Assembly (NCBI GenBank): GCA_900554365.1
Contig: USGY01000001.1
Coordinates: 27,214-91,213, forward strand
DNA length: 64,000 nucleotides
Source: an uncultured Clostridium sp.
Lineage (GTDB): Bacteria > Bacillota > Clostridia > TANB77 > CAG-508
Direction: 5' to 3'
Below the pieces are notes generated by a model. That model made no database searches. It saw only the letters and a list, made by a program, of their open reading frames with translations, and was not told where the DNA came from. The first letter of the stretch is position 1. Every line of letters begins with the position of its first letter. Of this stretch, positions 6,766-36,247 are shown piece by piece. Both the position numbers and the translations under genes were made by a program.

Positions 6766-6812
6766 ATAAAAACTACAAAAATAAAAAAATGTAAGAAAAG
6801 AGTTAAAATATC

Positions 6813-6841
6813 TTGAAAAAAAGAATTTAATAATATATAAT
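6813..6841 (+). promoter_or_regulatory. Sigma-A-like promoter (TTGAAA, 17-nt spacer, TATAAT)
   Basis: Motif match only. Sits upstream of the 6877 gene. Confidence 0.4.
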
Positions 6842-6876
6842 TTAACCATCATATAAAATATTAAGGAGTGATATAT

Positions 6877-7629: not shown

Positions 7630-7642
7630 TAAAAATAAAAAG

Positions 7643-7670
7643 CCGATGAATTTATATTCATCGGTTTTTT
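7643..7670. terminator. Bidirectional terminator between convergent genes
   Basis: Stem CCGATGAA/TTCATCGG flanked by an A-run upstream and T6 downstream. Confidence 0.7.
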
Positions 7671-10245: not shown

Positions 10246-10313
10246 ATTATAATCTCCTTTTTGTTCGTTTATTTTACAATTCTTTATAAAAAGAAATGGC
10301 GACAATAAAGTCG

Positions 10314-11168: not shown

Positions 11169-11274
11169 TTTTATCCTCCTATGTAATCTCAATTAATTCT
11201 TATAATATCTTATAATAAAAGTAAAATAAATTCAAGGGAAAAATAATAAAATAATAAAAATATCATAAAAACTG

Positions 11275-13316: not shown

Positions 13317-16300
13317 ATGGGAAAAAAAGATAAAAATAGAAAAAGAAAAGCAAAACCAATATTTTTTATAGTGTTATTTAATTTTTTAATAATAATTTCA
13401 CTAATTCTATACATAATTTATTTAAGATTTATACCATATACCACATTAGAATATAGTGGTTATGCTGTTTCTGGAAAAGATATTATATCAAATTTATTAA
13501 ATACAAATTTTGATTCAGAACAAAATATTAAAGCTTTACAAGTTAAAGATCAAGATTCAATATATGAAAATTTAGATTCTTATTATTTAGGAGCAAGTAA
13601 AAAAGATAATATTAACATAAATTATCCAATATATATAAATAATTCTTTAGCTTTATATAATTTGTCACCTAAAATGAGTCTTATTACAGATGATTTTCAA
13701 AAAGTGCAAGGATATGCAGGAACAACATTAACATCTGGAGAATTGTATAATGCAAGCACTTTGCAAAGAGCAGATTATAATGAATATATTTTATTAAAAA
13801 ATTCAGATAATTTATATATAAATACAAAAGATTTCAAAATAAAAACATCTACAAATGAATATACAATAAAAATGAATAGTATTATAAATTTCACAAGTGA
13901 TTTTATTACATATTATTCATTGAAAGATGGTGAGTTTATATATAACAAAATTTTAGATATTGATAATAATTCACAAGTAACAATTGAAGATTATAATAAA
14001 ACATACACATATAAGAACTTTTTGAAAAATTTAGGAATAATAAAAGACGGAAATAAATTAACTTCAAATAATGATAACAAAGACAAAAAAGAAGAAAATA
14101 AAACACAAAAAGTTAATGAGGTAAAAAAAGAAAATAAAGATAAAAATACAACAGAAGATACAACAAAAAATGATGTAGGTAATGAAAAACCTGTGGAAAA
14201 CATTGCAGAAGAGCCAATACAAGAAGAAACAAAGCAGGAAGAAAACAAACAAGAAGGAACATCAAACTCATCTGAAAAAATATGGATAAAACCAACAGTA
14301 ACAGCTGAGCAATTTACTTCAAATGTATATACTGCAAAAACAAATATTAAAATAGATGATCCAAGTAGAGTAATATATAAAGCTATTACATTTACATTTT
14401 ATAAAGATGATACAATAGCATTTAGGGTATCTAGTCAAACATCTGGAGAAGTAAGTGTAACAAAATTACTACCAAATACTAAGTATAAAATAGAAGGAAA
14501 ATATCAATATAGAAACAAAGAAGGAAACTTAATAGAAAGTACTATTTTAGAGCAAGAAATAACAACAAAAAGTGCAGATACACTTAATTCAATTGAATTA
14601 GGAATGAGTAATGGACAAGTATATTCAAATAAAATAGAAATAAATGATTTGCATGTTTCTTCAGATGTTACAGATGAGGCAATATATGGAGTATCTAAAG
14701 CCGAAGTATTAATAAATGATATTAAATATAGTTTAGATTCTTCATCACTTAAAAAAATCTTAAAAGGAGAGCATATAAAATATCAATCTGCAGAAGGTGT
14801 AAAATCAAATAGTAGTTGTAAATATGAAATAAAATTTTATGATACAGCTGGAAATGAAATGAAACTAAAAAATAATACTGGAAACACAGTGACTTCTAAG
14901 AAAACACCATCAGTAAAACTAAAAATTTCTGCTCAAGAGGTAATATCAGTAACAGTGATACCTACACTTGTAAATGAAGATAATGTTGAAATAAACAACT
15001 ATAGATATGCATTATATTCAGATACAGGAGAAATGGTGACAATTGGAAATGTTACAGGACAACCTATAGAATTTAAAGATTTGGATTCGCAAAAAACATA
15101 TACAATAAAAATTTATGCTGATTTTGATATATCAGATGGAAAAGGAGTTCAATATAATCAAGAAATAGGAAATAGTACTTTTGTAACATTACCACTTAGT
15201 AAATTAGGAAACTTAAAGCTAGATGTATCTTATGATCAAGATACAGATATTACATATAATAGTATAAATTTAAAAACTGCAATTAATATAAATAAAACAG
15301 ATAGTAGATTAATTAAAATATTAAGGAGTGTAAATTTAGCAATAAAGGATGAAAAAGGAAAAGAAGTAACAAATATTGAAATGACAGATATTTCTGCTTT
15401 ATCAACAGTCGATGGAATAAAGAACTTAATAGGAGATTTAAAATCTAATACAACATATAATATTGAAATCACAGCAAAAGCAGTTCAAGGAAGTAAAGAA
15501 GAAAAAATATCAACTACATACACATTAAAGAAATTTTTAACTAACAAATTACCTGCAAAAATGAGTGTGAAAAATGTAGTAACAACGACAAATCTTATTG
15601 ATATGGATATATATATTGATGATGTTGATCATAGTTGTTTGGAAGATGTAGTTACAGTTAGATTAATAGATAGTTATGAGAAAGAATATTTACCTAAGAT
15701 AGAACCTACAAATATAAAAGGAAGTACAAAAATTCCGACAAATCAGTGGGTAAGAATAACATATACCGGACTACCAGAAAATGAAAAATATGAGTTTGTA
15801 ACTGAAGCTGTATCTTATAATGAAACAAATGATACAAGCAAGGTTCAAAATAATTACAAAATATTAACAAAAGATTTTATTACATCTGGTTTAGGAGGAA
15901 ATGTTGAATTATCAGGGTTAAACAGAGAAAAACAACAATCATGTTCTAATTTGATTGATGTAAAATCAGAAAATAACTGGTATTCACAATGTTTCGATAC
16001 TTTAAGTACAGAATATACATTAGATGAAGCAAACAATGTATCATTTAAAGCAAATTCTAAATATAATTATGGAAAAACATATACAGAAGATGATAATACT
16101 ATTAATTTAAAATTATTATCAAATCAATGTTATCTATATGATTTCTCACAATATAAAGGACAAACAATAACTCTAACTTTTTCAGCTAAAGTAACTGAGA
16201 CAAATGCAAAAGTATATTTGCAAAAAGGAAAAAATATTGGACAAAATCTAGAACAAATAACAGGATTGCAAAATAATAATTGGATATCAATTAAAAAAAC

Positions 16301-19300
16301 TTTGGTAGTACCAGAAGATGGTTATGTAGGATTTTATCTTGAAAAATATCAAGAAACAATTCCAAAAACAGAAAATGAAGAAGCTAAAGTTCAAGATAAA
16401 GATTATTATTTAGATTTAAAAGATATAAAAGCAGAACTTGGAGCAGAATCAACAGGATATTCTAAATATGTATACGATTTATATGCTAATATAAATGTAA
16501 AATTTATAGATGAAAATCATATTACATATGATGAAAATGAACAAAACTGTAAATATTATATTAGACTAAAAAATGATAAAGGACTTAATGAAGAATACGA
16601 CTATACATATGATTCAAAAGAAAGTATATTAGAAAAATATAAATATAAAATAGAAGAAACAAATGATATTACAAATTACACAATTGAATTAGTTGTTAAA
16701 CAATATGGAAGAGAATATCAATTAGATAAAGTAGAATTTAAGTATGATCCAACAAATTCTAAAGAAATAAAAAGTATTTCGAGTGTAGAGGACTTTAAAA
16801 AGATACAACCATATGGAAGTTATATATTATTAAATGATATAGATTTAACAGATGCAGGAACTACTAGTGAATTTACTTTTGGAAATCCCAACATTTCTTT
16901 TTATGGAAATATAGATTTTAATGGAAAAACAATAAAAAAAGATACATATTCGCTAACTAAACAAAAAGATACAACATCATATATTTTCTATAAATTAGAT
17001 GAAAAGGCAAACTTGAAAAATATTGTAATAGATTTTAATATAAATAATCCTAAAAATAGATTAACAACTAAAGTAGAAGGAATTGATACATTTATAGCTG
17101 AAGAAGACGGAATATATTCTTTGTTTTTATATAATAATGCAAAAATTGATAATGCAATTGTAAATTTAAAGGGAAGTACATATAAACAAAGAATTAATGT
17201 TGGACTATTAGGATATAGAAATCAAGGTACAATTGAAAATTTCGTAATAAACTTTGAAGGTACATTATATGGATCAAAGAATCTTGCTGGTGTTTGTCTA
17301 TATTCTGAAGGAACAATACAAAATGGATATGTATATGGAAAAGGAATTGAAGCAATAGATAATATAACAATAGGTGATTATAGAAATATAGCAGGAGTTG
17401 TATTCCAAGTAGATGAAGCAGGAGTATTACAAAATGTATACAATACATCACCTATAAAAATGAATCACTGTGATTCAACATATTCATATGCTGCAAATAT
17501 TGTATATAATGTTGGATATCCACCAGTAATAAATGAGACAACAGGTGCAGTAATTTCTAGTAAAGATTCAACTGCGACTGTAAATAATGTATATTCTGTT
17601 CGTCCGTTAATTACAACATATAGTGGTTATGAATATTATGGAATAATGGATTCAAACAATAAAGAAGGAGATAAAGGTCCTAACATATTAAACAAATATA
17701 CTAGTACAAAGGTAAAAGAATCATATTATTTCTGTGATACAATTTATGAAGCAAATGATTATAATACAAAATCATCTGCAACTGCATTATATGAGCCAGG
17801 CGTTCAAGAAGTATTGTTAAATGCAAATGGATATAATCAATTTATAATTGATACATTAGTAAATAATGGCTATTATCCACAGCTAAACTTAAATTATTGT
17901 ATGCCTAAACAAGATAATATTAAAATAGATGTAACAGGTACAGAAATAATTGATGTACTATCATCTGAAGTAGTAAAAAATAATGATATTTCAACATTAG
18001 AAATGAGTGATAAAGTAAAAGGTGAGGTAGAAAATTACATTAGAAATAATAATGTTGATTTAAAAGCTGATAATCTAGTTTTAGCAACATTTAGAATTTA
18101 TAACCCTGCTGGAACTACAATAAGTGAAATAAATGTAAACTATATGGATACTGAAATTATGAGTCAATCATATGAAAAGAAAGTAAGTACAGTATATGTT
18201 ATACTAAAAAATCCTACATCATTTTTAGATGAATATGATGTTTCATCAATAAAAAGTAAAATGGCAAATGGAAAAGTAAAAGAATCTGTATATGGAGAGA
18301 ATGAAGATTTAGGAGTAAGAAAAGTAAATGTTAGGTTTGTAAAAAATATATCAACTGAAGAAGAATGGAACAAAATAAATGAATCAGACGAAAACGGAGT
18401 TAGCGGATTGGTACAAAATTACAGATTAATAAAGGATTTGGATTTTGCTGAAGCGGATGTTGCACCATATATAACAGGTACATTTGAGGGAAATATAGAT
18501 GGACAATATAAAGGAACAATACATACAATAAAAAATATAAATGGAAAATTCTCATTAATAAAAGCACTAAGACAAGGAAGCATAAAGAATTTGAACATTG
18601 AAAACTTTACAATAAATACTGATTCTCAATATGCAGGTCTTATAGAAAAATCAGATATAGAAGAAAATATTGAAATAAATAATGTCCATATAAAAAATAT
18701 GGAAATTGTATCAACATATGGAGGAGAATGGACTGCATATGGAAGCATAGCTGGATATATAAGTAGTGGTTCAGCAAATGATGCAACATCTATAAAAGTG
18801 CAAAATTGTTCAGTTCAAGGACTTAATATTGATTTGGAAAATGCAAATGCAACATCAATTAGAGTAGGTGGACTTATTGGATATCTATATGCTTATGGAG
18901 GAGTAGATGTTTATGTAACAAATGACTTTGCTCAAAATATATCAATAAATGCAGATGTTACATCTAATACAGGAGTAGGCGGAATAGTTGGTTATAAAGG
19001 ACATGATGCCGATGAGAAAAAGAAAATAGGTGAACCTAATTTTTATATTCAAAATTGCTATACTACTGGAAAAATAAATACGATGTATCGTGCAGGAGGA
19101 ATCCTTGGATATGGCTTATATGCAAATACATACATTCAAAAATGCTGGAGTACATTAAATATAACAAGTAAAATGATGTCAGGGTCTGCTGATATAGGTG
19201 GAATTGTTGGATATTCAGGAACAGGAGTAAATAATATAAGTAATAATATATATTTAGGAAATATATATGTATCAGGAAATGACGTAAAAAATGTAAATAG

Positions 19301-22300
19301 AATTTTTGGATCTAATGCGGGAACATCATCATATAAAAACTATGCATATAAATATCAATTAATAAACGGAGAAGTTTCAACAAATCAATTAGGAGCAACT
19401 AAATTACTAACATATTCAGAAATATTTCAAATAAATACATATAAAAATTTAATTGGATTTGACAATAATTATACATATACAATAGAAAAAAATGGAGCAC
19501 CATTTAATTTACTAGAAAATGAGTATTTGCCAGAATTAAACGATACCATTGGAAATGTATTATCAAATCAAAAGTTAACACCGATAGATACTGATCTTAA
19601 ATTAGATACAATTACATCAGTTCCATCATCAGATAAAACTCAAGTTACTGTTACTATGAAATTTGAGAATAAAAACAACTTGAATTTAACAAGAGTAAAA
19701 ATTGAAAATGACGATATGATTGTAAAAGATGGAACATGGAATACAAGTATCGACAGCAACGGTCTTACTGTTGTTAGTTTTATTGCGACACCTAGAAGAG
19801 CATTTGATAGTTATAAAATAGAAAGTATATATTATGAAAGAAATGGACAAGAAATAGAAAAAGAAATAGCAACAAAAATAAAATTAGAATTATATAAAGG
19901 AATATCAACAGCTCAAGAATGGAATGAATTTTTCTCTGGTGATGGAAGAACATATGGTGGACAGAATATAAAAATTACTGGAGATATAGATTTCTCAGCG
20001 GTTAATTCTATCGAAAAAGATGTTGTAATAGGAAAGCTAGAAGCAGATAGTGTAAAAACAATTTCTGGTATAAATCTAAAATCACTAGATGCAAATAGTG
20101 GATTTATTAAAGAAATAAAAACAAAAATGAGTAATATTAAATTTGAAAATTGTTCACTTCAAGGTGAAAATGGAGGGTATAACGGTATTGTTGTAATTTC
20201 AAGAGGAGAAATTAGTAATTGCTCATTTAATAATATTAATTTAGATTTTAAAGGATCATATATAGGTGCTGTTTCCAGAACGATAGCAGGAAGTTTTAAA
20301 AATATAACTGTTAATAATGTACAAGCAAAAGGAAATACATATGTAGGTTCATTGTGTGGCAATGCAACAGCACTTGGAACATCTTCCGGAATAAAAGGAA
20401 CATATATATCAGTAACAGCTACAGGAAACGATGTTGGTGGAATGTTTGGATGCACAGATGGAAGAATAGATAATGTACAAACATATCAATATTCTGAAAA
20501 CGGAAAAACATCATCTGATAAAGAAACATCATGGCTGGTAAAAGGAAATCAAAATGTAGGTGGAAATATTGGAACATATGCTGGAGGCGGAAATTGGGTT
20601 ACTAACCTAAGAATTACTAACAGCAAAATTTCAGGAAATAATACAGTTGGTGGAAATGTAGGATGGGGCTCAGGAAATGGAAGCGTACTAACATCAACAA
20701 ATAATATAGTTACAGGAACAGGATATCATACAGGAGGAAATGTTGGAGCTCATGGATGGGCATTTTTGAATATGACATCATCTAATAATACAATAAAAGG
20801 AAACATAAATGTAGGCGGAAATACTGGAACAGGTGGATGGGCAACAGACGGAAACCTTACTTCTGAGAACAATAAAATAACAGGAGAAACGAATGTAGGT
20901 GGAAATTTAGGACAACAAGATCATTATTATGCAAATGCAAATAATATGAGATCATCAGGAACAAATCAAGTAATATCTGGAAATAATTACGTTGGAGGAT
21001 CTGTAGGACGCTCAGTTGGTAGAATTAAAAATGTAAAAGTACAAGACTGCACAGTTACTTCAAGAGGAAATTATACTGGAGGAATAATTGGAATGTCAGA
21101 ATATTCAACACCTTCAATATCAGCTTCAAATAGCGATAATTATGCAATAGCTGGATCAAATACTAAAAATGTAATTGTAAATGGTGGAAATAATTATGTT
21201 GGAGGAATAGTTGGATATCAAGTTGGAACAATATATGGAAATGCATTAGAAAATAGTACTGTTACAGCAAAAGGAAACAATGTAGGTGGAATAGCTGGAT
21301 TCTACACAGGATATATAGGAAATTCAGCAAGTTCGCTTTCATCATCAAACTTCTTCTTATGGCATTCATATTGCTCAAATTCAACAGTTAAAGGTACAAA
21401 TAATGTAGGTGGAATAGCTGGAAATATTATATTAGGAAATATTCAATACTGTTATGTACAAAATACAGATGTAATTGCATCAAACCAAGCTGCAGGTGGA
21501 ATTGTTGGATATTTTTATAATGCAAATCTAAATAATTTACAATATAAGGCAACTATAAAATATAATTACGTAGCCAATGTTGATGAAGGCAGAATTGTTA
21601 GAGCAAGTAATTCTGCAGGTGGAGTTGTAGGAATGGTAGCTAAACAATTAAATTATGACAAAAATATAGATACATATAATAATATTGAATGTGATTTAGT
21701 GGTAACAGATATTGCAACTGTAGGTAATTATGCAGATATTGGAATTGGCTCTGTAGGAGGAAGTGAATATGGAATTCTACAAGCTGGTTATATGAATAAT
21801 ATATATGCATATAATTGTTCAAAATTAAATGGAGTACAAATAGGTGGAATATCAGAAGAAAAAGAAGCTTATAATTTACTTACAAGCAATGAATTAAAAA
21901 CTAATATATATACTAAAAATGATAAAATTTTAGATGAAGATGGTAAAGTAATAGGTAACAAAGGATTGAACTTTGGAAATTCAAGATATATATATAATAA
22001 TGGATATTTCCCAATTTTAAAAACAAGCTATAATGCAAATCTTTATTGGAGCTCTAATGAATTAAATATAAATCAAAAATTAGTAAGTATTCCAACAAGA
22101 AATCAAGAATTTACAAGTACACAAGCACTTACATCATATAGTGAACAAATGGATGTTGCGGCATTTAGCGTATTTAATGAAGCAGAGGAACTACCAGAAA
22201 TGTATGTTTATGCAACTGGTGTAGATAAATTAAATATTGAATTTAGCAATATAAACAGTAGTGCGAAATTTAAATTAAAAACATCAGATTCTGTTATTGG

Positions 22301-23612
22301 AGAACCAGTAAGTATAACTAAAAAAGCATATACAATAAAATATGATTATAAAACACCAATAACAATAACTTTATATAACACAAGTTATTCAAGCAAAAAA
22401 GAAATTAAACCAGAAGATGTAAGAAATGTGCTTTCGATAAATGGCGATGAATACTTGTATTTAAAAGATAATGCAATTAATTCAAATAAGAGAACTATAT
22501 CTGGAGAATATGCAAACTTATATAAAAATCAAGCATTAACTTTTGATGGAAAAATATATGATATATCTACAATGAAGACTATAAGCGATGATAATAATAT
22601 TGAGATATTAAAAGAAACAACACCTATTGCAGAAAGTAAAATAAATGGAAAAACAGTACAGACTTTTGCACATTTTTCAAAGACTGATTCAGATACATAT
22701 AAAGATCAACAAATATTTGTAAAAAATGGATATATGTATGCAATAGATGGACAGTTAAAAAATAAAGAAGGTGCAATAATAATTGATTCATATAATGATA
22801 AACAATATGAAACAGTTCTTGGAACAGATGGAATTATGTATGATTTATTAACAAAAATCAATTATCCAGCAAACTTTAAGAACAAGGGAATTGTTGCAAT
22901 GACAAATAATATTTCAGATAAAAATAATGTTGTTTTAGTATATTATGAAAGCGGAAAAGTGTATGGATTTAATTATATAACAGGTGAAGAAGTATATGAT
23001 AATAATGTAAAAGCTCAAAATATAAGCTTAGTTGACTATATAGCAAGTAATTTCAATGTAGGTAAAATGATGTATAATATGAGAAAATCAGATTATGTTG
23101 CGGCACAAAATTTAACATCTAAGCTAGAAAAAGTTTCAGTAGATGAAGCACGTAATCAAACAAATTCTGAGACAAATGCAGAAAGTTCAAATTCAAATTT
23201 GGTTTCAAACAATGATAATGAAAATACAAATGTAAATGCAAAACCAAATGCTAATGTAAATACAAGTACAAATACAAATGTAGATACAACTATAAATGTA
23301 AATGAGAACACTAATGCAAATGATACAGATGTTAATAATCAAATTGATAATAAATATACAACAGTATATGATGCAAGTACCCAAACTTATAAAGTATACA
23401 GTACAGCAGAATTAACAAAATCAGGTTCAGCAAAAACTGAAAGTGAAAATGAAAAAATCAATAATAATAAAGATTTAATATCTTATTATACAAATGTATC
23501 TTCTAGTACATCAAAATTTAAAAATGTTGGAATAATAGTAATAGTTATTATAGTTCTTTCTATATGTACAATATTAATAATATGGTATGAAAAAACTAGA
23601 AAAGACAATTAA
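13317..23612 (+). CDS. Giant (3431 aa) cell-surface protein. N-terminal signal-anchor, K/E-rich linker, Fn3/Ig-like modules, jelly-roll (CBM-like) domain, three ~520-aa GLUG-motif beta-helix modules, Asn-rich linker and a C-terminal TM anchor
   Basis: One uninterrupted 10.3-kb ORF with RBS AAGGAAG. TM helices at both ends. Many GNxNVGGxxG / (N/Y)VGGI(A/V)G repeats. See findings. Confidence 0.9.
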   Translation: MGKKDKNRKRKAKPIFFIVLFNFLIIISLILYIIYLRFIPYTTLEYSGYAVSGKDIISNLLNTNFDSEQNIKALQVKDQDSIYENLDSYYLGASKKDNININYPIYINNSLALYNLSPKMSLITDDFQKVQGYAGTTLTSGELYNASTLQRADYNEYILLKNSDNLYINTKDFKIKTSTNEYTIKMNSIINFTSDFITYYSLKDGEFIYNKILDIDNNSQVTIEDYNKTYTYKNFLKNLGIIKDGNKLTSNNDNKDKKEENKTQKVNEVKKENKDKNTTEDTTKNDVGNEKPVENIAEEPIQEETKQEENKQEGTSNSSEKIWIKPTVTAEQFTSNVYTAKTNIKIDDPSRVIYKAITFTFYKDDTIAFRVSSQTSGEVSVTKLLPNTKYKIEGKYQYRNKEGNLIESTILEQEITTKSADTLNSIELGMSNGQVYSNKIEINDLHVSSDVTDEAIYGVSKAEVLINDIKYSLDSSSLKKILKGEHIKYQSAEGVKSNSSCKYEIKFYDTAGNEMKLKNNTGNTVTSKKTPSVKLKISAQEVISVTVIPTLVNEDNVEINNYRYALYSDTGEMVTIGNVTGQPIEFKDLDSQKTYTIKIYADFDISDGKGVQYNQEIGNSTFVTLPLSKLGNLKLDVSYDQDTDITYNSINLKTAININKTDSRLIKILRSVNLAIKDEKGKEVTNIEMTDISALSTVDGIKNLIGDLKSNTTYNIEITAKAVQGSKEEKISTTYTLKKFLTNKLPAKMSVKNVVTTTNLIDMDIYIDDVDHSCLEDVVTVRLIDSYEKEYLPKIEPTNIKGSTKIPTNQWVRITYTGLPENEKYEFVTEAVSYNETNDTSKVQNNYKILTKDFITSGLGGNVELSGLNREKQQSCSNLIDVKSENNWYSQCFDTLSTEYTLDEANNVSFKANSKYNYGKTYTEDDNTINLKLLSNQCYLYDFSQYKGQTITLTFSAKVTETNAKVYLQKGKNIGQNLEQITGLQNNNWISIKKTLVVPEDGYVGFYLEKYQETIPKTENEEAKVQDKDYYLDLKDIKAELGAESTGYSKYVYDLYANINVKFIDENHITYDENEQNCKYYIRLKNDKGLNEEYDYTYDSKESILEKYKYKIEETNDITNYTIELVVKQYGREYQLDKVEFKYDPTNSKEIKSISSVEDFKKIQPYGSYILLNDIDLTDAGTTSEFTFGNPNISFYGNIDFNGKTIKKDTYSLTKQKDTTSYIFYKLDEKANLKNIVIDFNINNPKNRLTTKVEGIDTFIAEEDGIYSLFLYNNAKIDNAIVNLKGSTYKQRINVGLLGYRNQGTIENFVINFEGTLYGSKNLAGVCLYSEGTIQNGYVYGKGIEAIDNITIGDYRNIAGVVFQVDEAGVLQNVYNTSPIKMNHCDSTYSYAANIVYNVGYPPVINETTGAVISSKDSTATVNNVYSVRPLITTYSGYEYYGIMDSNNKEGDKGPNILNKYTSTKVKESYYFCDTIYEANDYNTKSSATALYEPGVQEVLLNANGYNQFIIDTLVNNGYYPQLNLNYCMPKQDNIKIDVTGTEIIDVLSSEVVKNNDISTLEMSDKVKGEVENYIRNNNVDLKADNLVLATFRIYNPAGTTISEINVNYMDTEIMSQSYEKKVSTVYVILKNPTSFLDEYDVSSIKSKMANGKVKESVYGENEDLGVRKVNVRFVKNISTEEEWNKINESDENGVSGLVQNYRLIKDLDFAEADVAPYITGTFEGNIDGQYKGTIHTIKNINGKFSLIKALRQGSIKNLNIENFTINTDSQYAGLIEKSDIEENIEINNVHIKNMEIVSTYGGEWTAYGSIAGYISSGSANDATSIKVQNCSVQGLNIDLENANATSIRVGGLIGYLYAYGGVDVYVTNDFAQNISINADVTSNTGVGGIVGYKGHDADEKKKIGEPNFYIQNCYTTGKINTMYRAGGILGYGLYANTYIQKCWSTLNITSKMMSGSADIGGIVGYSGTGVNNISNNIYLGNIYVSGNDVKNVNRIFGSNAGTSSYKNYAYKYQLINGEVSTNQLGATKLLTYSEIFQINTYKNLIGFDNNYTYTIEKNGAPFNLLENEYLPELNDTIGNVLSNQKLTPIDTDLKLDTITSVPSSDKTQVTVTMKFENKNNLNLTRVKIENDDMIVKDGTWNTSIDSNGLTVVSFIATPRRAFDSYKIESIYYERNGQEIEKEIATKIKLELYKGISTAQEWNEFFSGDGRTYGGQNIKITGDIDFSAVNSIEKDVVIGKLEADSVKTISGINLKSLDANSGFIKEIKTKMSNIKFENCSLQGENGGYNGIVVISRGEISNCSFNNINLDFKGSYIGAVSRTIAGSFKNITVNNVQAKGNTYVGSLCGNATALGTSSGIKGTYISVTATGNDVGGMFGCTDGRIDNVQTYQYSENGKTSSDKETSWLVKGNQNVGGNIGTYAGGGNWVTNLRITNSKISGNNTVGGNVGWGSGNGSVLTSTNNIVTGTGYHTGGNVGAHGWAFLNMTSSNNTIKGNINVGGNTGTGGWATDGNLTSENNKITGETNVGGNLGQQDHYYANANNMRSSGTNQVISGNNYVGGSVGRSVGRIKNVKVQDCTVTSRGNYTGGIIGMSEYSTPSISASNSDNYAIAGSNTKNVIVNGGNNYVGGIVGYQVGTIYGNALENSTVTAKGNNVGGIAGFYTGYIGNSASSLSSSNFFLWHSYCSNSTVKGTNNVGGIAGNIILGNIQYCYVQNTDVIASNQAAGGIVGYFYNANLNNLQYKATIKYNYVANVDEGRIVRASNSAGGVVGMVAKQLNYDKNIDTYNNIECDLVVTDIATVGNYADIGIGSVGGSEYGILQAGYMNNIYAYNCSKLNGVQIGGISEEKEAYNLLTSNELKTNIYTKNDKILDEDGKVIGNKGLNFGNSRYIYNNGYFPILKTSYNANLYWSSNELNINQKLVSIPTRNQEFTSTQALTSYSEQMDVAAFSVFNEAEELPEMYVYATGVDKLNIEFSNINSSAKFKLKTSDSVIGEPVSITKKAYTIKYDYKTPITITLYNTSYSSKKEIKPEDVRNVLSINGDEYLYLKDNAINSNKRTISGEYANLYKNQALTFDGKIYDISTMKTISDDNNIEILKETTPIAESKINGKTVQTFAHFSKTDSDTYKDQQIFVKNGYMYAIDGQLKNKEGAIIIDSYNDKQYETVLGTDGIMYDLLTKINYPANFKNKGIVAMTNNISDKNNVVLVYYESGKVYGFNYITGEEVYDNNVKAQNISLVDYIASNFNVGKMMYNMRKSDYVAAQNLTSKLEKVSVDEARNQTNSETNAESSNSNLVSNNDNENTNVNAKPNANVNTSTNTNVDTTINVNENTNANDTDVNNQIDNKYTTVYDASTQTYKVYSTAELTKSGSAKTESENEKINNNKDLISYYTNVSSSTSKFKNVGIIVIVIIVLSICTILIIWYEKTRKDN
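14280..15900 (+). repeat. About five tandem ~90-110-aa beta-sandwich (Fn3/Ig-like) modules inside the giant gene (protein-level repeats)
   Basis: Recurrent module-end signatures LLPNTKYKIEGKY, LDSQKTYTIKIYA, LKSNTTYNIEITA and LPENEKYEFVTEA. Confidence 0.45.
20160..21650 (+). repeat. Dense degenerate ~25-30-aa GLUG-like repeats (GNxNVGGxxG), predicted beta-helix
   Basis: More than 15 successive copies, for example GNQNVGGNIG, GNNTVGGNVG, GNINVGGNTG, GETNVGGNLG, GNNYVGGSVG, GNNVGGIAG and TNNVGGIAG. Confidence 0.6.
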
Positions 23613-23621
23613 TAAATAAAA

Positions 23622-23651
23622 ATGCGGTAGATAATTTCTATCGCATTTTTT
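23622..23651 (+). terminator. Rho-independent terminator after the 3431-aa gene
   Basis: 10-bp stem ATGCGGTAGA/TCTATCGCAT (one G-U pair), 5-nt loop, T5. Confidence 0.7.
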
Positions 23652-23857: not shown

Positions 23858-26800
23858 ATGAAAAAATATATATTGTTTTTTATAAGTATAGGTATAATAT
23901 TAGGTGCATTATTATTATATAATGTAGTGCATATTTCAGAAGAAAAGAAAACGACATTTAGTGAACCAGGATATATTTTAAATGGAACAACAAGCAGATA
24001 TTATTTTGGTCAAAATACAAAATACACATCATCATATAATAACAAAATAGCGTTTCATGACACAGAAGGTGAAAAAGTAACCTTAGGTGATGATAATTTT
24101 GTTCATTATAACAGTGGAAATATCGAAGCTTTGCAAGATAGTGTATTACTTGACTTAAGCAAAATAAATGATAATCCAATAGTATATTACAATGTATCTG
24201 CAAATAAAGAAATAAAAAAAGTTTCAAACAGATATAGTGTTAGAAATTTAGATTCTGATTTACAATTTGAACAAGCAATTTGGAAAATTTCTGCCAATAA
24301 ATATATCGTTTTAGGAAATAAACTAACAGCAACATTAAATAACGGAATGACAAAAGAAGCAGATGGATATATTGAAGTACAATATTCAGATAATGAAGTG
24401 GTTAGCGTATATAATCAAGATTTTAATTCACAAACAATATCTTCAAATTCTTATATAGACATTGGTAATGGAATAAAACTTAATTTAGGAACTAAAATAG
24501 TAAGCCAAAATGATGTTAATAAAATGTCTTTAGAAGATATGGTCATAAATTCAAATGATAATGTCACATTAGTTGATTTAAATAAAAAAGAAGATGAAAA
24601 TAAAGACGAGAATAATGCAACAAATACAACGAATGTAGTAAATGAAACTAATATACAAACAAACACAACAACGGCAAATAATACAAAGAACAACATTAAC
24701 AATAATAGCAATAATAACGGAAATAATAATAAAAATAATGATGTAAGTAATTCTCAACCAAATACAAATGTAACAACAACTATAACAACAAATACAACAC
24801 AAACACAACCTACTACAAATGAACCACAAAATGTAATAAATATTAATACTCCAGATATTATGTCTGAATATGTTGACGAAAATGAAAATAAAGTGGATGA
24901 AACAGTTGCGGCCAAAGAGCCTAAATTTAAATTAGAAAATCTTGAGGTAACAGCAGTAGGAATTCAGGCAGAATTACAAATAAAAGATGATGATGATACA
25001 TTATCCAAAAATGATAATGTAAAAATAAAAATAACAAACAATTCAACTGGAAAAGTTGTTTATACAGATACACAATCATATGGAACATTTAAAATTCCTA
25101 TTAATATTGAAACATTAGTGCCAGATACAAGTTATACTATAACTGCAAATGCAACATATGTTGTTAATGAAAAAAATTATACAAAAGACTTTTTATACAA
25201 AACATTTGTAACATCAACTATAGGTGCAGAACTAACCAAAGACTCATATACTAATAATTCATTAGCATTTAATGTTAATTTTTCGGACAAATTAATCGAT
25301 AGTGCAGATGTAGTATTGTTAGATGGAAATGGAAATGAAATAGCAAATAGAAAACAAACAGTAAAAAATAATGGAACACAAGAAAACATTATTTTTGATG
25401 GTTTAGTAGCAGATACAGATTATACAGTAAGACTTACTAATATAAGCTATAACGGAATAATTCAAGATGGTGACAATTGGAAAAAAGAGATAAAATGTAA
25501 AACGTTAAAAACAAAAGCAAGTATTAATCAATTAAATTATTCAGTAAATAAAAGAAATGGTACATTTACACTATATATAAATGATGTAACAGATAATAAT
25601 AGTTCAATACAAAGTTATAAATATATAATGTATAAATATACTCAAATAGAAGATGAAAATGGAAAAACCACATTAGATTATGATACTACTAATGTAGTGT
25701 ATCAAAAAGATACAAAAGATAAAGAAATTACTATCCCTGTAAATGATGAATCAAGTGATAGTGGAGTAGTAAAAGGACAATATTATGGATTTAAAGTAAT
25801 TGCTACAACATATGATAACGAGAAATATGTTGACATAGAAAGTTCAATGTGTGGTGTATTTACATTAAATGGTTCAACATTTCCAAGTGTAAAATTTGAA
25901 AGAGTTGATAGTGACTATCCACCAACAGAAATAAGAGGCTGGTTTTATATCGTAGATAATGATGGAACAATTACAGTAGATCAAAATAATCCTTTAACAA
26001 TCACATATTATAGTGATGTAGATGAAGGAGAAGTTTATGTTAAGAGAACAGGCTTAACAGCAGATGAAAGAACAACAGATACAGATGGAAATGAAGTAAT
26101 AAAAATATGGGTAGACCTAGGAGAAAAAGGAAATAATAAAAAAGGACTAAAATCAGAAACATCATATACACTTGCTGCATATGGTACAGTAAATTTGAAA
26201 GATGAAAATGGAGATTACAAAAATGCACATATAGGTAGTACAATAGTGACAACAGGTTCATATCAACCTATATCAGCTAAAATGACCACAACCAATGTTC
26301 CGACAAACTCATTTACAGTAGATTTAAGTTTACAAGGTGATGAGGTATCTAAAGAAGGACTATCTAGTGTAAATATTATGCTATACGAAGGCTCTGGAGA
26401 TATAAATACAGGTGAATATAAACATTGGAGTCGTACAATAACTGCAAATAACTTCACATCTTGCTTAAGCAATGTAAAAGGTGAAAAACAAGCAAATAGT
26501 CTTCAAGAATTGTTCTTTGACAATGAGTTGGAAGTAACACCATCATTTATAGCTGGAGGAAAAGAATCAAGTTATACAGAATTAAATTATCAAGTTATTG
26601 TAACTGCGACAGTAGATGGAACAACATATACAAACAAAATACCAGTACAATCAGCAGAAGATGAAGATGATAATACAGGAAATACTACGTATACAGACTC
26701 AAAAACAGTAGAAACATATTCAGCTGCATACATAATAGTAAAGGGAAAAGGAACAGTTGTTGAGGTGCCTGAAGAATATAAGAGAGTACAAGCAACAGCT

Positions 26801-29638
26801 ATTACAAATGAAGATGCAACTAAATATGGAATTGTAAAAGATGAAAATTTAAATAACAGTACATATGTAGGCTATTATTTAAATACAGCTTTTTCAAATA
26901 CTGGATCATTAACTGCAAAATATATAACTTATTATGCTTGGGATAAAGATGGAAATCCGGTATTAGATGAAAATGGAAAACAAATCACAAAAACAGCTAA
27001 CTTTATAAATCAAGAAAAAGCACCATCTGTTATTTTCAATTTAAAAGGTGGAACTACAGATACATCAAAAGAAGATAATGCAACAGGATTACATAGAGGA
27101 AATGCTTACTATTTCTCATATACAGTAACATATAAAGATGCTGAAGGAAATGACTTAGTATGGCCAACGTGTAAAAGTGATGAGAAAAATAAATATGATA
27201 ATAAAAGTTTAAGAACAGAAACATTATATCCAAATAAACAAGAACCAAATTTTGTAATGTTTCCAAAAACATCAGATGAAACAACAATAACATATATGTA
27301 TTCATGCACAGATCCTGATAAAGCTCTATATTATCCAGCACATAGTACAAATGAATATGGATATTTAAGTTTATTAGTAAATGGAACAACACAAAATTCA
27401 AATATAGAAGTTAAAACTGATGGAGAAATTCACGAAACAACAGTAGGAACATTGTCAGCAAATACTATGTATCAAATTGGATATACTAGAAATTTAAATA
27501 AAGCACAAACAAGTGCATATACGTTGAAAGAACTGGTAAAGCAAAAATTTGAAGGAATTGTAAATTGTAAAGACTTAAATATTGAAAATATTGTTTACAA
27601 TGATGATAGTAATCCTAATAGTGTAATAGTACAACTAACAGGAAATGATGTAAATAGAGTGGCTGCTGCACAGGTAATATTAGATAATGGACAAGAACAA
27701 GTAACAACTAAATTACTAAAATTAAATACAGACAATGGCAATTACATAAAATTAGATTTGTTACAACTATTAACTAGTGATAATGTAGCTAGATTTACAG
27801 GAAGAGATATAACATTAAAATTAAAAGTATATTATGACAATGGAAGAATTGGATTTATGACAGATGAAAGTCCTTATACAACATATGCAAATTCAGATAA
27901 TGCGTATATGAGATTAGATGGAACAAATCTTGTTGAAGACAATGCAATAAATGGTAATATATATGAATACCAATTTTATAAAAATGATGTAAATGCTCAA
28001 TTGGGATTAAAAGATTTAGAAAATATAAACAATAATGAAAATGGAAAATCAGTTGATTTACAATATTCAGGAGAAGGTTTAAAACAAAATGGCAATATAA
28101 TAGTTCAAAAACAAATTATGGCAAAAGAAATAAATGATGGAACAGAACATAAAATAAATATACACACTATTCGTCTAGGATTAAAAATGAATAGTATTAC
28201 AACAACAATATCAACTGCTAATGTAAGTGCAACTATAATTAATCCAGTAAATGTTTCTATTAATGGACTTACAATGGAAATATGGCATTCAAAAGATGCG
28301 AATGCAGCGCCAAACTGGAATTCAGCACAAACAAAAGTAATAGATCCAAGCCAAATGTCAAATATCACATTAGATAATTTAGCACCAGCAGAATATTATT
28401 ATATAAGATTTAAATATTTAGATAATAATGCATATGTATATGTATATTTATATGATAAAGATTCTGGAGAAATGGGAAAAGTTTATTCATTTGAAACATT
28501 AGCAACAATTGGAATTGAAAATGTAAATGTAGAGTATGAGGCACAAAATTACAAAAATAAATACTTAAATATCTCATATAATGTAAATAATGATAGATCA
28601 ACAATGTATGCTAAGACTAAATATACATTTTACAAGAAAGATGGAACAACAAAAATTAATCTTTCAGATGCGAATATACAAAAGACAGATGAGCAAGCAG
28701 AATATAAAATTGTTGATGGAAGTTTAGTTGTATCTAATACAAAGGGAATGGACAATCAAAAATTTGATAGCGTAAAAGAACAAATAAAAATAAGTCCAGA
28801 CAGTAATCCATTTACAATGGGGGATGACTATGTATTAAAAATAACACCAATAGTTATAATTAATGAAACTCGAGAATATGAAATTGATAGTGAAGTAGGA
28901 GAATTTAATGTAAAATCTCTTCAAAACCCATCTATTGGTCTGAAGATGGAAAGAAAACAATTAACAAATGATAGCAAAGTACTAAGAACAACAGTATCAA
29001 TAAAAGATCAAGATGCATTAATTAGTGGAACCGATTGGGGTGAATATACTTTACGAATATATAAATACAAAGATAATGTAGATAAAGCGGTAGAAGTAAA
29101 CACATATGACAAAAGTCAAGGTGGAAATAACATAACAGGAAAAAAATTAAATTTAAAAGAAAATGCAACAAATTATACAATATATGTACAATCTCAAGAT
29201 ACAGACTATACATATAACTATATCGCTAAATTAGAGTTAAAATATGACAAAAATAACAATGGAAAAGATTTAGAAAACCATACAGAAAAATATACATTGA
29301 AAGCTATTTCTAATGATCAAGATGTTGCAATTGGTAGTGCAACATTAGTGCCAAATGGAAATAAATGTGAAATACGTTTTTATGATAGTTACTATAACAT
29401 CAAAAAAATTAATAGAATAGATTATACAGTATATAATTTAAAAAGTACTTACAATCAAACAGGATCATATAAGCCAGAATGGATATCAGCAAGTCAAGAT
29501 CAAAATGTAATTTATTTTAAAACAGAATTACCAATTGATTTTATAGAAAAAGCAACATATATTATTAAACTAAACTTATATGTAGGAAATACTTTGGTAG
29601 GACAAGTTGATACTACATTTATAAATGAGGATAAATAA
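23858..29638 (+). CDS. Giant (1926 aa) membrane-anchored surface protein with N-terminal TM, Asn/Thr-rich linker and many Fn3/Ig-like modules
   Basis: RBS GAGGGAG. TM YILFFISIGIILGALLLYNVV. Module signatures LVPDTSYTITANA, LVADTDYTVRLTN, LKSETSYTLAAYG and LAPAEYYYIRFKY. Confidence 0.9.
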   Translation: MKKYILFFISIGIILGALLLYNVVHISEEKKTTFSEPGYILNGTTSRYYFGQNTKYTSSYNNKIAFHDTEGEKVTLGDDNFVHYNSGNIEALQDSVLLDLSKINDNPIVYYNVSANKEIKKVSNRYSVRNLDSDLQFEQAIWKISANKYIVLGNKLTATLNNGMTKEADGYIEVQYSDNEVVSVYNQDFNSQTISSNSYIDIGNGIKLNLGTKIVSQNDVNKMSLEDMVINSNDNVTLVDLNKKEDENKDENNATNTTNVVNETNIQTNTTTANNTKNNINNNSNNNGNNNKNNDVSNSQPNTNVTTTITTNTTQTQPTTNEPQNVININTPDIMSEYVDENENKVDETVAAKEPKFKLENLEVTAVGIQAELQIKDDDDTLSKNDNVKIKITNNSTGKVVYTDTQSYGTFKIPINIETLVPDTSYTITANATYVVNEKNYTKDFLYKTFVTSTIGAELTKDSYTNNSLAFNVNFSDKLIDSADVVLLDGNGNEIANRKQTVKNNGTQENIIFDGLVADTDYTVRLTNISYNGIIQDGDNWKKEIKCKTLKTKASINQLNYSVNKRNGTFTLYINDVTDNNSSIQSYKYIMYKYTQIEDENGKTTLDYDTTNVVYQKDTKDKEITIPVNDESSDSGVVKGQYYGFKVIATTYDNEKYVDIESSMCGVFTLNGSTFPSVKFERVDSDYPPTEIRGWFYIVDNDGTITVDQNNPLTITYYSDVDEGEVYVKRTGLTADERTTDTDGNEVIKIWVDLGEKGNNKKGLKSETSYTLAAYGTVNLKDENGDYKNAHIGSTIVTTGSYQPISAKMTTTNVPTNSFTVDLSLQGDEVSKEGLSSVNIMLYEGSGDINTGEYKHWSRTITANNFTSCLSNVKGEKQANSLQELFFDNELEVTPSFIAGGKESSYTELNYQVIVTATVDGTTYTNKIPVQSAEDEDDNTGNTTYTDSKTVETYSAAYIIVKGKGTVVEVPEEYKRVQATAITNEDATKYGIVKDENLNNSTYVGYYLNTAFSNTGSLTAKYITYYAWDKDGNPVLDENGKQITKTANFINQEKAPSVIFNLKGGTTDTSKEDNATGLHRGNAYYFSYTVTYKDAEGNDLVWPTCKSDEKNKYDNKSLRTETLYPNKQEPNFVMFPKTSDETTITYMYSCTDPDKALYYPAHSTNEYGYLSLLVNGTTQNSNIEVKTDGEIHETTVGTLSANTMYQIGYTRNLNKAQTSAYTLKELVKQKFEGIVNCKDLNIENIVYNDDSNPNSVIVQLTGNDVNRVAAAQVILDNGQEQVTTKLLKLNTDNGNYIKLDLLQLLTSDNVARFTGRDITLKLKVYYDNGRIGFMTDESPYTTYANSDNAYMRLDGTNLVEDNAINGNIYEYQFYKNDVNAQLGLKDLENINNNENGKSVDLQYSGEGLKQNGNIIVQKQIMAKEINDGTEHKINIHTIRLGLKMNSITTTISTANVSATIINPVNVSINGLTMEIWHSKDANAAPNWNSAQTKVIDPSQMSNITLDNLAPAEYYYIRFKYLDNNAYVYVYLYDKDSGEMGKVYSFETLATIGIENVNVEYEAQNYKNKYLNISYNVNNDRSTMYAKTKYTFYKKDGTTKINLSDANIQKTDEQAEYKIVDGSLVVSNTKGMDNQKFDSVKEQIKISPDSNPFTMGDDYVLKITPIVIINETREYEIDSEVGEFNVKSLQNPSIGLKMERKQLTNDSKVLRTTVSIKDQDALISGTDWGEYTLRIYKYKDNVDKAVEVNTYDKSQGGNNITGKKLNLKENATNYTIYVQSQDTDYTYNYIAKLELKYDKNNNGKDLENHTEKYTLKAISNDQDVAIGSATLVPNGNKCEIRFYDSYYNIKKINRIDYTVYNLKSTYNQTGSYKPEWISASQDQNVIYFKTELPIDFIEKATYIIKLNLYVGNTLVGQVDTTFINEDK

Positions 29639-29671: not shown

Positions 29672-31521
<1,850 letters not shown>

Positions 31522-32405: not shown

Positions 32406-33737
32406 ATGGATACACATATAAAAAACCTTGTAAATGAAAAGGTATCAAAAATAAAAAGTAAAAATAATATTTTTGATTCAGGAAAGGTTATAAAGATAAA
32501 AGATTATATAGTAGAAGTATCAGGATTAGAAAATGTAATGTACTTTGAAAAAGTCATTATTATGGGAAAAGGAATGGGATATGTTAATGCTATATATGAA
32601 AATTCTGTAATTATAGCTATAGTAAAAGAAGATAAAAAAATAGAAATAGGAGATGTAGTTAATTCCACTGGAGAAATATTTAAAGCTATTTTTTCAGAAG
32701 ATGCTATGGGGAGAATGGTAGATATATTCGGTGTAGACCAATTATCAGGAAAGCCATTTGAGAATTTTAAGTACATAGATATAGAAAAGCCTAATGTACC
32801 AATTATGGATAGAACTTCTGTATGTAGACCATTGCAAACAGGAATAGCTGGAATAGATCTAATATATCCAATAGGAAAAGGACAAAGACAATTAATTATA
32901 GGAGACAAAAAAACAGGAAAAACACAAATAGCATTAGATACAATAGTAAATCAGGGATGTGTTGAACAAGAAAATGGACAAGTAATATGTATTTATGTAG
33001 CAGTTGGAAAAACTAAAAAAGAAATTAAATCTATTTATAATGAATTATTAAAACGTAATGCACTTTCTTATACTATAATGGTAGTTGCAACAAATGATAA
33101 TAAAACACCTGTAATTAGTCTTATTCCTTATGTTGGAATGTCAATTGCAGAAGAATACATGAAAAAGAAAAGAGATGTATTAGTCGTAATAGATGACCTA
33201 AAAAAACATGCCGAAGTGTATAGAGAAATAAGTTTGGTATCAAACAAAACACCTGGTAGAGAAGCATATCCAGCAGATATATTTTATACACATTCAAGAT
33301 TGTTAGAAAAAGGATGTCAACATAAAAATGGAGGATCAATAACAATACTTCCAATTGTTGAAACTAAAGGTGGAGATATTACAGATTATATATCTACTAA
33401 TATCATATCAATAACAGATGGACAAATAGTTTTATCTAATAAAGAATTTTTAAAAGGACAAAAACCTGCGATTGATTATGGAATTTCAGTATCAAGATTA
33501 GGAGGAGCGGTACAAACTCCTAGAATGAAGAAAATTGGTGCAACTGTTAGATTAAAACTTTTAAATTACTTAGAAACAAAAGATGTATATGAATTAGCCA
33601 ATACAGATGAACTAAGTGATGATTTAAAAGAAAAGCTAAAAGAAGGTAAAAAAATAGAAATGCTACTTAGACAAGAAAAATTCGAACCATTTACAAGTGA
33701 AGAAATCTTAGATAGATTCGAAGATTTTGAAGAATAA
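32406..33737 (+). CDS. atpA: F1 ATPase alpha subunit-like protein (short, 443 aa)
   Basis: GDKKTGKTQIALDTIVNQ (canonical GDRQTGKT), ISVSRLGGAVQ and ITILPIVETKGGDITDYISTN. Confidence 0.88.
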   Translation: MDTHIKNLVNEKVSKIKSKNNIFDSGKVIKIKDYIVEVSGLENVMYFEKVIIMGKGMGYVNAIYENSVIIAIVKEDKKIEIGDVVNSTGEIFKAIFSEDAMGRMVDIFGVDQLSGKPFENFKYIDIEKPNVPIMDRTSVCRPLQTGIAGIDLIYPIGKGQRQLIIGDKKTGKTQIALDTIVNQGCVEQENGQVICIYVAVGKTKKEIKSIYNELLKRNALSYTIMVVATNDNKTPVISLIPYVGMSIAEEYMKKKRDVLVVIDDLKKHAEVYREISLVSNKTPGREAYPADIFYTHSRLLEKGCQHKNGGSITILPIVETKGGDITDYISTNIISITDGQIVLSNKEFLKGQKPAIDYGISVSRLGGAVQTPRMKKIGATVRLKLLNYLETKDVYELANTDELSDDLKEKLKEGKKIEMLLRQEKFEPFTSEEILDRFEDFEE

Positions 33738-33762: not shown

Positions 33763-36237
<2,475 letters not shown>

Positions 36238-36247
36238 GTGGGATAAG

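Follow-up and report, generated by a model that had tools for sequence, protein, structure and literature searches.

A giant, predicted doubly anchored surface protein encoded beside an F1-like ATPase cluster in uncultured gut Clostridia

The window analyzed here is a 64,000-nucleotide (nt) stretch of DNA from an uncultured Clostridium sp. (contig USGY01000001.1, positions 27,214 to 91,213). It contains a 10.3-kb open reading frame (ORF) that encodes a surface protein of 3431 amino acids (aa), referred to below as the giant, next to a cluster of genes for a divergent F1-like ATPase. We propose, with a rough probability of 0.55, that the giant is the variable, ligand-binding outer component of a surface machine coupled to this ATPase. 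The frame runs without interruption in a window of 26% GC content, and because a frame of this length cannot arise by chance in such DNA, the ORF is regarded as real. A protein identical to the giant is encoded on 10 public contigs, and no name was found in databases for the giant or for ten of its relatives.

Linkage of the giant to an F1-like ATPase cluster

The cluster around the giant encodes three other membrane-anchored surface proteins, of which none reaches its size, together with F1-like alpha, beta, gamma and epsilon subunits and a b-like stalk protein (Table 1). The very divergent gamma subunit served as the probe for linkage, and six loci with a gamma at 58-74% identity were read in addition to the window. 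The same cluster with an adjoining orthologous giant was observed in all seven loci (the window and L007-L012), the giants being collinear from residue 4-40 on. The giant lies upstream of the cluster in the window and in L009, and downstream of it, directly after the gene for the 256-aa-like ectodomain protein, in L007, L008, L010, L011, and L012. In L008, L011, and L012 the gap at the giant junction is only 18-34 nt, which points to a single operon of giant and cluster in these three loci. The giant also follows the 256-like gene directly in L004, and contigs from Hadza gut metagenomes that contain an 85-88% identical 1926-aa gene have a giant ortholog upstream of it. Since the linkage has been kept despite the change of side, the giant and the cluster are best regarded as a functional unit. 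The original prediction had placed the giant, as a probable member, in the ATPase system and named co-occurrence of homologs as the check; this assignment is borne out by the seven loci.

Seen from the side of the giant, a scan of metagenomes with the profile of its N-terminal head domain gave 74 loci with more varied surroundings. The ATPase lies directly upstream in four of them (L026, L030, L070, L079), the 256-like gene lies upstream in L069, and the head of a 1926-like protein begins just downstream, as in the window, in L014, L016, L017, and L018. Another giant paralog stands immediately upstream on the same strand in 18 loci, and a further head starts 0.5-1.5 kb downstream in L027, L045, L077, and L078. 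The absence of the ATPase at most metagenome loci was considered as a sign of non-linkage and rejected, because in the 18 loci just mentioned another giant takes up the flank on the upstream side. Transposase genes were seen beside two giants: one of the IS91/Y2 family, whose insertion in L079 (8227-9117, minus strand) separates the giant from the 256-like gene, and one of the PD-(D/E)XK family downstream of the giant in L073 (19128-20030). Such elements may explain the moves of giants away from the cluster.

The subunits of the cluster point to an output other than ion transport. Every ion-translocating c subunit carries a glutamate or aspartate at a fixed position in helix 2. Compared with reference c-subunit sequences, the c-like hairpin protein of the cluster has an alanine at this position in four orthologs (the window; L007, 7525-7770; L008, 7568-7813; L009, 7502-7756). 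Its helix 2 contains no acidic residue at all, and the protein is almost invariant across lineages whose gammas are 59-74% identical to that of the window. Because alanine replaces the carboxylate and the helix is free of acids, a ring of this protein would be unable to drive ion flow or be driven by it. The protein lies far under all NCBIfam cut-offs, with a subunit c score of 33.9 bits against a cut-off of 71. The Pfam and NCBIfam models for the a, b, and delta subunits (ATP-synt_A, ATP-synt_B, and OSCP) had no match in the window or in the six other loci. With the c carboxylate lost and the a, b, and delta families undetected, the cluster is, to judge from its sequences, not a canonical F1Fo ATP synthase, and its usual a and delta subunits appear to be replaced or absent. 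The beta-like subunit is strongly divergent and scores 390 bits against the best canonical F1 beta versus 312 bits against the G1 beta of Mycoplasma mobile (9io5); for the alpha-like subunit, too, canonical F1 gives a higher score than M. mobile G1.

The place of subunit a is occupied by a 192-aa multispanning protein. Its orthologs keep a K(R/K/N)(V/I/F)(I/L)(Y/F)E motif and a second glutamate (Y(M/Q)(M/L)E(V/M)) in or near their transmembrane (TM) segments, and these conserved polar residues could be the functional residues of a novel stator. The beta-like ORF and the 526-aa ORF are listed with TTG starts. As the corresponding beta ORF in L005 and L006 begins with ATG and encodes 456 aa, the real start of the beta-like protein in the window is probably a downstream methionine (MKEEETS...).

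The linkage could also mean that the giant is a passive adhesin or a wall-associated structural protein that receives no energy input, its adjacency to the ATPase reflecting co-regulation or shared locus ancestry. This account, which we consider unlikely, draws on several features: the combination of beta-helix, Fn3, and possible carbohydrate-binding modules is one typically seen in static adhesins of Gram-positive bacteria, for example the L. reuteri SRRP recovered by Foldseek; the cytoplasmic tails are very short; some giants, as in L073, lie away from any visible cluster gene; and in the window the giant has its own terminator, as had been claimed earlier and as the hairpin directly 3' of its stop codon bears out, followed by a gap of 245 nt to the 1926-aa gene. 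It is at odds with the linkage retained in all seven loci although the giant has switched sides, and with the operon spacing found in three of them. It also leaves the ATPase to one side: an ion-blind c-ring needs another output, and the surface proteins are the sole other conserved genes of the cluster.

A further possibility is that the F1-like complex works as a dedicated motor for the export or assembly of long surface proteins, with the giant as its cargo, in the manner of FliI/FliH/FliJ. FliI and FliJ are homologous to F1 alpha/beta and gamma and serve type III export, so the recruitment of F1-like ATPases to protein export is known; all four conserved partners of the cluster are large secreted or anchored proteins, and the tandem arrays of giants described below would add to an export load. 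Against these points, the cluster keeps the full rotary architecture of a c-like ring, an epsilon-like subunit, and a b-like stalk without an export gate, Pfam and NCBIfam scans of the cluster found no export-gate homolog, and the partners have ordinary Sec-type N-terminal hydrophobic segments. We regard an export motor as very unlikely.

Table 1. Features of the giant and of the neighboring cluster in the window (positions are those of the window)
Feature	Position	Strand	Basis or remark
Giant ORF	13317..23612	+	ATG start; 3431 aa, 381 kDa, isoelectric point 5.1
N-terminal hydrophobic segment, aa 14-36, behind a 13-residue basic stretch	13356..13424	+	Hydropathy
Head domain, aa 37-242, family-defining, all-beta	13425..14042	+	AlphaFold 2, profile search
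K/E/N-rich low-complexity linker, aa 243-318	14043..14270	+	Composition
Fn3/Ig-like repeat region, aa 320-880, about five domains	14274..15956	+	Pfam fn3, internal repeat
Possible CBM4-like jelly-roll (about aa 930-990), then beta-rich spacer	15957..16766	+	Weak profile match
Module 1: degenerate beta-helix, then Ig-like domain	16767..18347	+	hhalign to module 2
Module 2: IgA1-protease-type (N-terminal domain) right-handed beta-helix, helical hairpin, Ig-like domain	18348..19901	+	Pfam, PDB profile, AlphaFold 2, Foldseek
Module 3: longer beta-helix, about 700 aa, 10 GG(I/N)(V/I/A)G turns	19902..22016	+	Motif scan, hhalign
C-terminal beta-rich domain, aa 2901-3281, fold without relative	22017..23159	+	Collinear in ortholog L003
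Asn-rich linker (36% Asn), aa 3282-3342	23160..23342	+	Composition
Conserved pre-anchor segment (YxTVYDxxTxxYxVYS...)	23343..23519	+	Conserved in L003, L005, L006
C-terminal TM helix (aa 3402-3423) and basic tail WYEKTRKDN	23520..23609	+	Hydropathy; family conservation
Terminator-like hairpin, 14-bp stem, then T run	23618..23650	+	Directly 3' of the giant stop codon
1926-aa surface protein, N-terminal anchor, conserved cluster member	23858..29638	+	Orthologs in L005-L011
526-aa surface protein, N-terminal anchor, conserved cluster member	29672..31252	+	Locus comparison
c-subunit-like hairpin protein, 83 aa, without ion-binding carboxylate	31270..31521	+	Weak NCBIfam subunit c matches
b-like stalk protein, TM helix and coiled coil, 279 aa	31548..32387	+	No family match
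F1 alpha-like subunit, 443 aa, about 70 C-terminal residues missing	32406..33737	+	
Very divergent gamma-like subunit, 261 aa	33763..34548	+	
F1 beta-like subunit	34557..35954	+	Intact Walker A, catalytic Glu, DELSNED motif
Epsilon-like subunit, 97 aa	35944..36237	+	Weak matches
192-aa multi-TM protein (about 5 TM helices) at the place of subunit a	36227..36805	+	No known family
256-aa TM-anchored ectodomain protein	36809..37579	+	Directly upstream of the giant in most loci
valS	37902-40577		Downstream of the cluster

Architecture and variability of the giant

The architecture of the giant begins and ends with a membrane segment. A Kyte-Doolittle hydropathy scan (19-residue window, threshold 1.6) finds exactly two hydrophobic segments, at aa 14-36 (peak 2.97) and aa 3402-3423 (peak 3.45), flanked by the basic sequences MGKKDKNRKRKAK and WYEKTRKDN. 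On the strength of these basic flanks and the positive-inside rule, we infer that both termini are cytoplasmic. No LPXTG-type motif ([LINSV]Px[TSA][GANS]) occurs in the giant, which therefore falls outside the sortase-anchored class, and NCBIfam sorting-signal models do not match its last 80 residues. Both terminal hydrophobic segments and the basic C-terminal tail are found in 80 of 81 full-length family representatives, and both anchors are present in the distant orthologs L003 and L009; the double anchor is for this reason taken as a trait of the family and not a quirk of one sequence. Several elements of the original prediction are retained here: the single ORF of 3431 aa, a TM helix with a basic stretch at each end and no LPXTG motif, the positions of the K/E-rich and Asn-rich linkers, and, as a coherent topology prediction, tethering of the protein at both termini. 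The K/E/N-rich linker is possibly a spacer that crosses the cell wall. An (N/S)-G pair begins the C-terminal TM helix in roughly half of the 81 family members (P0214-P0361; positions 23517-23525 in the window); it may be a weak processing or packing signature and matches no known sorting motif.

The N-terminal hydrophobic segment is probably an uncleaved signal-anchor. If it were instead a cleaved signal peptide, the head would be free and the giant would be anchored only at its C-terminus like Ebh of Staphylococcus aureus, a giant TM-anchored adhesin. A basic n-region followed by a hydrophobic core also fits Gram-positive signal peptides, and non-LPXTG C-terminal TM anchors are known in giant staphylococcal proteins. 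The hydrophobic run, however, is 23 residues long and is followed by a conserved RFIPY, with no A-x-A or small-x-small site nearby downstream, and the adjoining head is the most conserved part of the protein, as fits a membrane-proximal docking element. A single C-terminal anchor is accordingly rated as quite unlikely.

The head is modeled by AlphaFold 2 as a confident all-beta domain, with a predicted local distance difference test score (pLDDT) of 81.9 and a predicted template modeling score (pTM) of 0.82. Its fold has no match in the PDB or BFVD by Foldseek, nor in the PDB by profile, and no match to the head was found in plasmid and phage records. It is the most conserved segment of the giant, with 48-57% identity to distant orthologs versus about 30-40% in the body. 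In an exhaustive search, the head profile (A1) recovered 391 clusters (at the 50% identity level), and 353 of these have E ≤ 1e-10. The head is always found within residues 1-280, and most full-length members are 2800-4300 aa long. Head-domain giants are defined as a family by an N-terminal TM segment with a head of about 205 aa, by a total size of about 2800-4300 aa, and by a basic tail behind a C-terminal TM segment; the giant has all of these features. The original prediction had the giant share its head architecture with the proteins of the ATPase operon. Only the layout is common to them: no homology is detectable between the head of the giant and those of the 1926-aa and 526-aa proteins, BLASTP finds no similarity among the three proteins, and NCBIfam gives no match for any of them. 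The 1926-aa and 526-aa proteins appear to have homologous heads (hhalign probability 74-93%).

Two irregularities were noted in the family. In P0003, on a 2.7-kb ENA contig, the TM helix and head are followed after residue ~260 by a cohesin-type domain (PF00963) that replaces the usual body; either the contig is an assembly chimera or the head has been swapped in a natural variant. The giant gene is split in some assemblies, into at least five pieces in L011 (13678-20783; GCA_045650705.1) and into three pieces on a long-read contig in L003 (821-10174), and it has an early stop in L018; these could be sequencing frameshifts, or phase-variable or pseudogenized copies.

Applied to the whole protein, Pfam reports only a sub-threshold fn3 match (16.6 bits); seven fragments of the giant were also scanned. 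When aa 320-900 are scanned alone, fn3 (PF00041) reaches 28.8 bits against a cut-off of 25 in four stretches, and an hhalign self-comparison finds an internal repeat in this region (E 4e-8); the earlier proposal of about five Fn3/Ig-like modules is thus plausible. A carbohydrate-binding module (CBM) of the jelly-roll type had also been proposed, at about 15950-16330. An ortholog profile (A4) of aa 880-1150 matches CBM4-2 of Lam16A (1gui_A) weakly, at E 0.004, and makes the proposal plausible, while no Pfam CBM family reaches threshold on the giant; the Pfam CBM4/CBM9 model (PF02018) scores 14.5 bits against a cut-off of 25.9 and does so in another stretch of the protein.

The three large modules that follow are homologous to one another. 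In comparisons of ortholog alignments by hhalign, modules 1 and 2 align over their full length (98% probability, E 1.2e-13) and modules 2 and 3 align with internal alternative registers (98% probability, E 6.5e-14); the alignment of modules 1 and 3 is weak. BLASTP of the giant against itself detects no repeats, and profile comparison was required to reveal the modules. The original prediction had described three modules of about 520 aa, each opening with IS(S/T)xE(D/E)(F/W) and filled with VGGI-type repeats. The three modules stand and so do two of the openings (nt 16776 and 18348), while the third opening, ISTAQEW at about nt 19902-19905, deviates from the motif, and module 3 is considerably longer (Table 1). 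The GG(I/L/V)(V/A)G repeats are dense in module 3 (10 copies), fewer in module 2, and degenerate in module 1.

Module 2 carries the fold assignment. It reaches the Pfam model Peptidase_M26_N at 29.9 bits (gathering cut-off 27.7, E 4.3e-7), a model without a direct match in modules 1 and 3, which are homologous to module 2, and by sequence profile it matches a "putative IgA1 protease" (3n6z, E 0.0024) through NCYxxGxI...GGIxG turns. Its AlphaFold model (pLDDT 85.4, pTM 0.85) consists of a beta-helix of ~300 residues, a helical hairpin, and an Ig-like sandwich. In Foldseek the top matches to this model are the Streptococcus pneumoniae IgA1 protease structures 6xjb and 6xja (probability 1.0) and 7uvl; 5nxk is also among the best matches. 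The kinship to IgA-protease-type beta-helices inferred earlier is thereby supported. The accompanying label of GLUG modules did not survive: Pfam GLUG (PF07581) has no match in the giant, whole (E ≤ 1) or in the seven fragments (E ≤ 10). PF07581 is precomputed on the orthologous fragments P0137-P0140 and is faint in two full-length orthologs, so that the family does have the motif, which in the giant itself lies below detection. No peptidase family of Pfam or NCBIfam matches the giant; the M26 catalytic domain is absent, which sets the protein apart from ZmpA, ZmpB, and ZmpC, and no HExxH or HDxxH motif occurs anywhere in it. A protease function was ruled out for want of HExxH. The C-terminal domain of 380 aa has neither a PDB profile match nor a Pfam match.

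In one human-gut lineage (L024-L082, e.g., L039, 669-16822, and also L027, L045, and L078), two, three, or more giants of roughly 2800 aa stand in tandem on one strand. Their identity is 50-57% over the full length and 72-88% in the head. L039 and L079 share a downstream Mur ligase gene, and the position upstream is taken by the ATPase cluster in L079 and by a second giant in L039. Regional identity, calculated as the mean pairwise value across ten array paralogs in the coordinates of L030, is 77-91% in aa 1-800 (head, linker, and Fn3 stalk), 34-59% in aa 800-2400 (the CBM-like region and the beta-helix modules), and 60-73% in the last 250 aa. Constant ends with a variable middle are what one would expect of a protein that docks by its ends to machinery that does not vary and whose apex meets a ligand that does. 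The array pattern resembles contingency or variable-surface gene families.

This variability also bears on the idea that the beta-helix modules are glycoside hydrolases or polysaccharide lyases of the pectate-lyase/GH49 fold, which together with the CBM would make the giant a membrane-tethered polysaccharide degrader. Pfam Glyco_hydro_49 matches module 2 weakly (E 3.9e-4; 20.8 bits, under the cut-off of 27), a phage tailspike depolymerase is among the weak Foldseek matches to the module 2 model, and the CBM4 profile match fits the same picture. No enzyme family passes its threshold, however, the modules are the most variable part of the paralogs, as would be unusual for a conserved active site, and the best matches in fold and sequence are to the N-terminal domain of IgA1 protease, whose beta-helix is a mobile, substrate-gating, non-catalytic domain (PMC7695701). 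An enzymatic role for the modules is highly improbable.

A proposed mechanism and the points that weigh on it

In the reading that we favor, both termini of the giant would lie in the cytoplasm, held by the uncleaved N-terminal signal-anchor and by the C-terminal TM helix with its basic tail, and about 3360 residues would form an external loop. The two low-complexity linkers, K/E-rich after the head and Asn-rich before the C-terminal anchor, would take the chain out through the wall and back. The outgoing limb would be an Fn3-type stalk, and the distal part would consist of the possible CBM4-like module and the three beta-helix/Ig-like modules; having no catalytic motif, that part most likely serves to bind a ligand, whether glycan or protein. 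Within the membrane, ATP hydrolysis by the F1-like complex would serve to move the surface proteins or put them under tension, and not to transport ions. The conserved head, possibly together with the conserved C-terminal anchor region, would dock the giant to the machine, and the variable beta-helix region would catch and release ligands, with dynamic adhesion, surface movement, or ligand removal as the result, by analogy with two F1-like systems of mycoplasmas.

Several points count against this coupled surface machine. The cytoplasmic tails of the giant are only 13 and 8 residues long and are too short to reach F1, so any motor coupling must run via TM helices or ectodomains. Cleavage of the N-terminal segment by signal peptidase may occur. 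The head shows only a weak, non-significant relation to the 256-aa ectodomain (hhalign E 0.0036, probability 9%). The conserved ends of the paralogs could result from gene conversion instead of functional constraint. Lastly, the adjacency of giant and cluster is not universal when seen from the giant's side: in L062, L071, L072, and L073 no cluster gene occurs in the fetched flanks, within 7-10 kb upstream or about 2 kb downstream.

Known analogues, host, and wider meaning

F1-like ATPases that drive surface proteins are known from the gliding of M. mobile and from the MIB-MIP system and have been described as specific to mycoplasmas (PMC12994834). In M. mobile gliding, a Type 2 F1-like ATPase, G1, is believed to have a mechanical output, which would be relayed across the membrane to surface proteins that are very large and anchored by TM segments, while in MIB-MIP the effector genes stand beside an F-type ATPase cluster of atypical make-up, which has no normal Fo and on which the effectors depend for their function; the mycoplasma Type 2 and Type 3 clusters have seven genes, including 12-TM and 2-TM proteins, no c subunit, and alpha and beta subunits of their own clade (PMC12994834). 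By working principle, these two systems would be the closest analogues of the locus described here.

The gliding machinery (Gli123, Gli349, and Gli521 with G1) resembles the Clostridia locus in that an F1-derived ATPase occurs beside large TM-anchored surface proteins, and the size set is similar, with three or four surface proteins of about 58 kDa to about 381 kDa in the Clostridia. Unlike the gliding system, the Clostridia cluster has retained a c-like and a b-like subunit and includes no protein with 12 TM helices, its beta-like subunit is nearer to canonical F1 beta than to G1 beta by the bit scores given above, its surface proteins show no sequence or Pfam similarity to those of M. mobile, its host is a walled spore-former, and its giant is predicted to be anchored at both ends. 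MIB-MIP, with its Type 3 F1-like X0 ATPase, likewise has surface-protein genes beside an atypical ATPase cluster, and the modules of the giant echo the N-terminal domain of IgA1 protease. X0, in contrast, comprises a 12-TM and a 2-TM protein, and MIB and MIP are a small binder and a protease, whereas the giant has no protease motif. Composition, alpha and beta scores, and surface proteins all differ, and on these comparisons the Clostridia cluster does not appear to be a member of mycoplasma Type 2 or Type 3.

Other resemblances concern the giant alone. With the N-terminal beta-helix of the M26 IgA1 metalloproteases and Zmp proteins (6xja, 3n6z), its modules have the fold and the GG(I/L)(V/A)G turn motif in common; they differ in that the beta-helix occurs in three tandem copies without the M26 catalytic domain or HExxH, that a C-terminal TM anchor replaces the N-terminal LPXTG anchor, and that GLUG is undetected. 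The binding region of the L. reuteri SRRP (5nxk) offers a comparable beta-solenoid binding surface at the tip of a long stalk, and Ebh-type adhesins of S. aureus share the sortase-free anchoring by a C-terminal TM helix and basic tail. Unlike the giant, SRRP and Ebh-type adhesins have one anchor, a cleaved signal peptide, no ATPase linkage, and no equivalent of the head domain.

The host can be characterized from the flanking genes. Downstream of valS lies a sporulation block (40744-44322) that encodes a STAS anti-anti-sigma factor, a HATPase_c anti-sigma kinase, and a sigma-70 factor, in the manner of spoIIAA/AB/sigF, together with SpoIID and an M23 peptidase; on the other side, upstream of the giant, are gpr and ytxC (5830-8526). 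On account of these genes, the host is taken to be an endospore-forming, walled bacterium. A 213-aa TM protein encoded upstream (12521-13162) was ruled out as a member of the system because it is conserved only in near-identical contigs. Elsewhere in the window (8659-11192, minus strand), a gene for a GH57 branching enzyme forms a pair with one for a DUF4912 protein on the opposite strand, beside pfk; the two resemble a glycogen-metabolism pair and are unrelated to the giant.

A bolder extension of the favored reading, which we hold only tentatively and to which we would give somewhat less than even odds, is that a third kind of F1-like rotary ATPase, of independent evolutionary origin, exists in walled, spore-forming gut Clostridia and performs mechanical instead of chemiosmotic work: an ion-blind c-ring would turn against a novel stator and pull or reposition the surface proteins, with the giant as an exchangeable "leg" or "cable". 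No description of such a cluster in Clostridia or outside the Mollicutes was found in the literature, and there is a sizeable chance that the locus encodes a genuinely new surface machine.

If the mechanical reading of the ATPase is true, no machine of the kind known from mycoplasma gliding or MIB-MIP would have been found outside the Mollicutes before this one. The locus suggests that the mycoplasma principle extends, with entirely different surface components, to abundant uncultured Clostridia of the human and animal gut, and it provides a testable system for exporting the work of a rotary ATPase across a membrane and a cell wall. It also gives context to hundreds of unnamed proteins of 3000-4000 residues in gut metagenomes. 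The arrays with constant ends and a variable middle point to a diversifying surface that faces the host, glycans, or phages, and that could matter for colonization and immune recognition.

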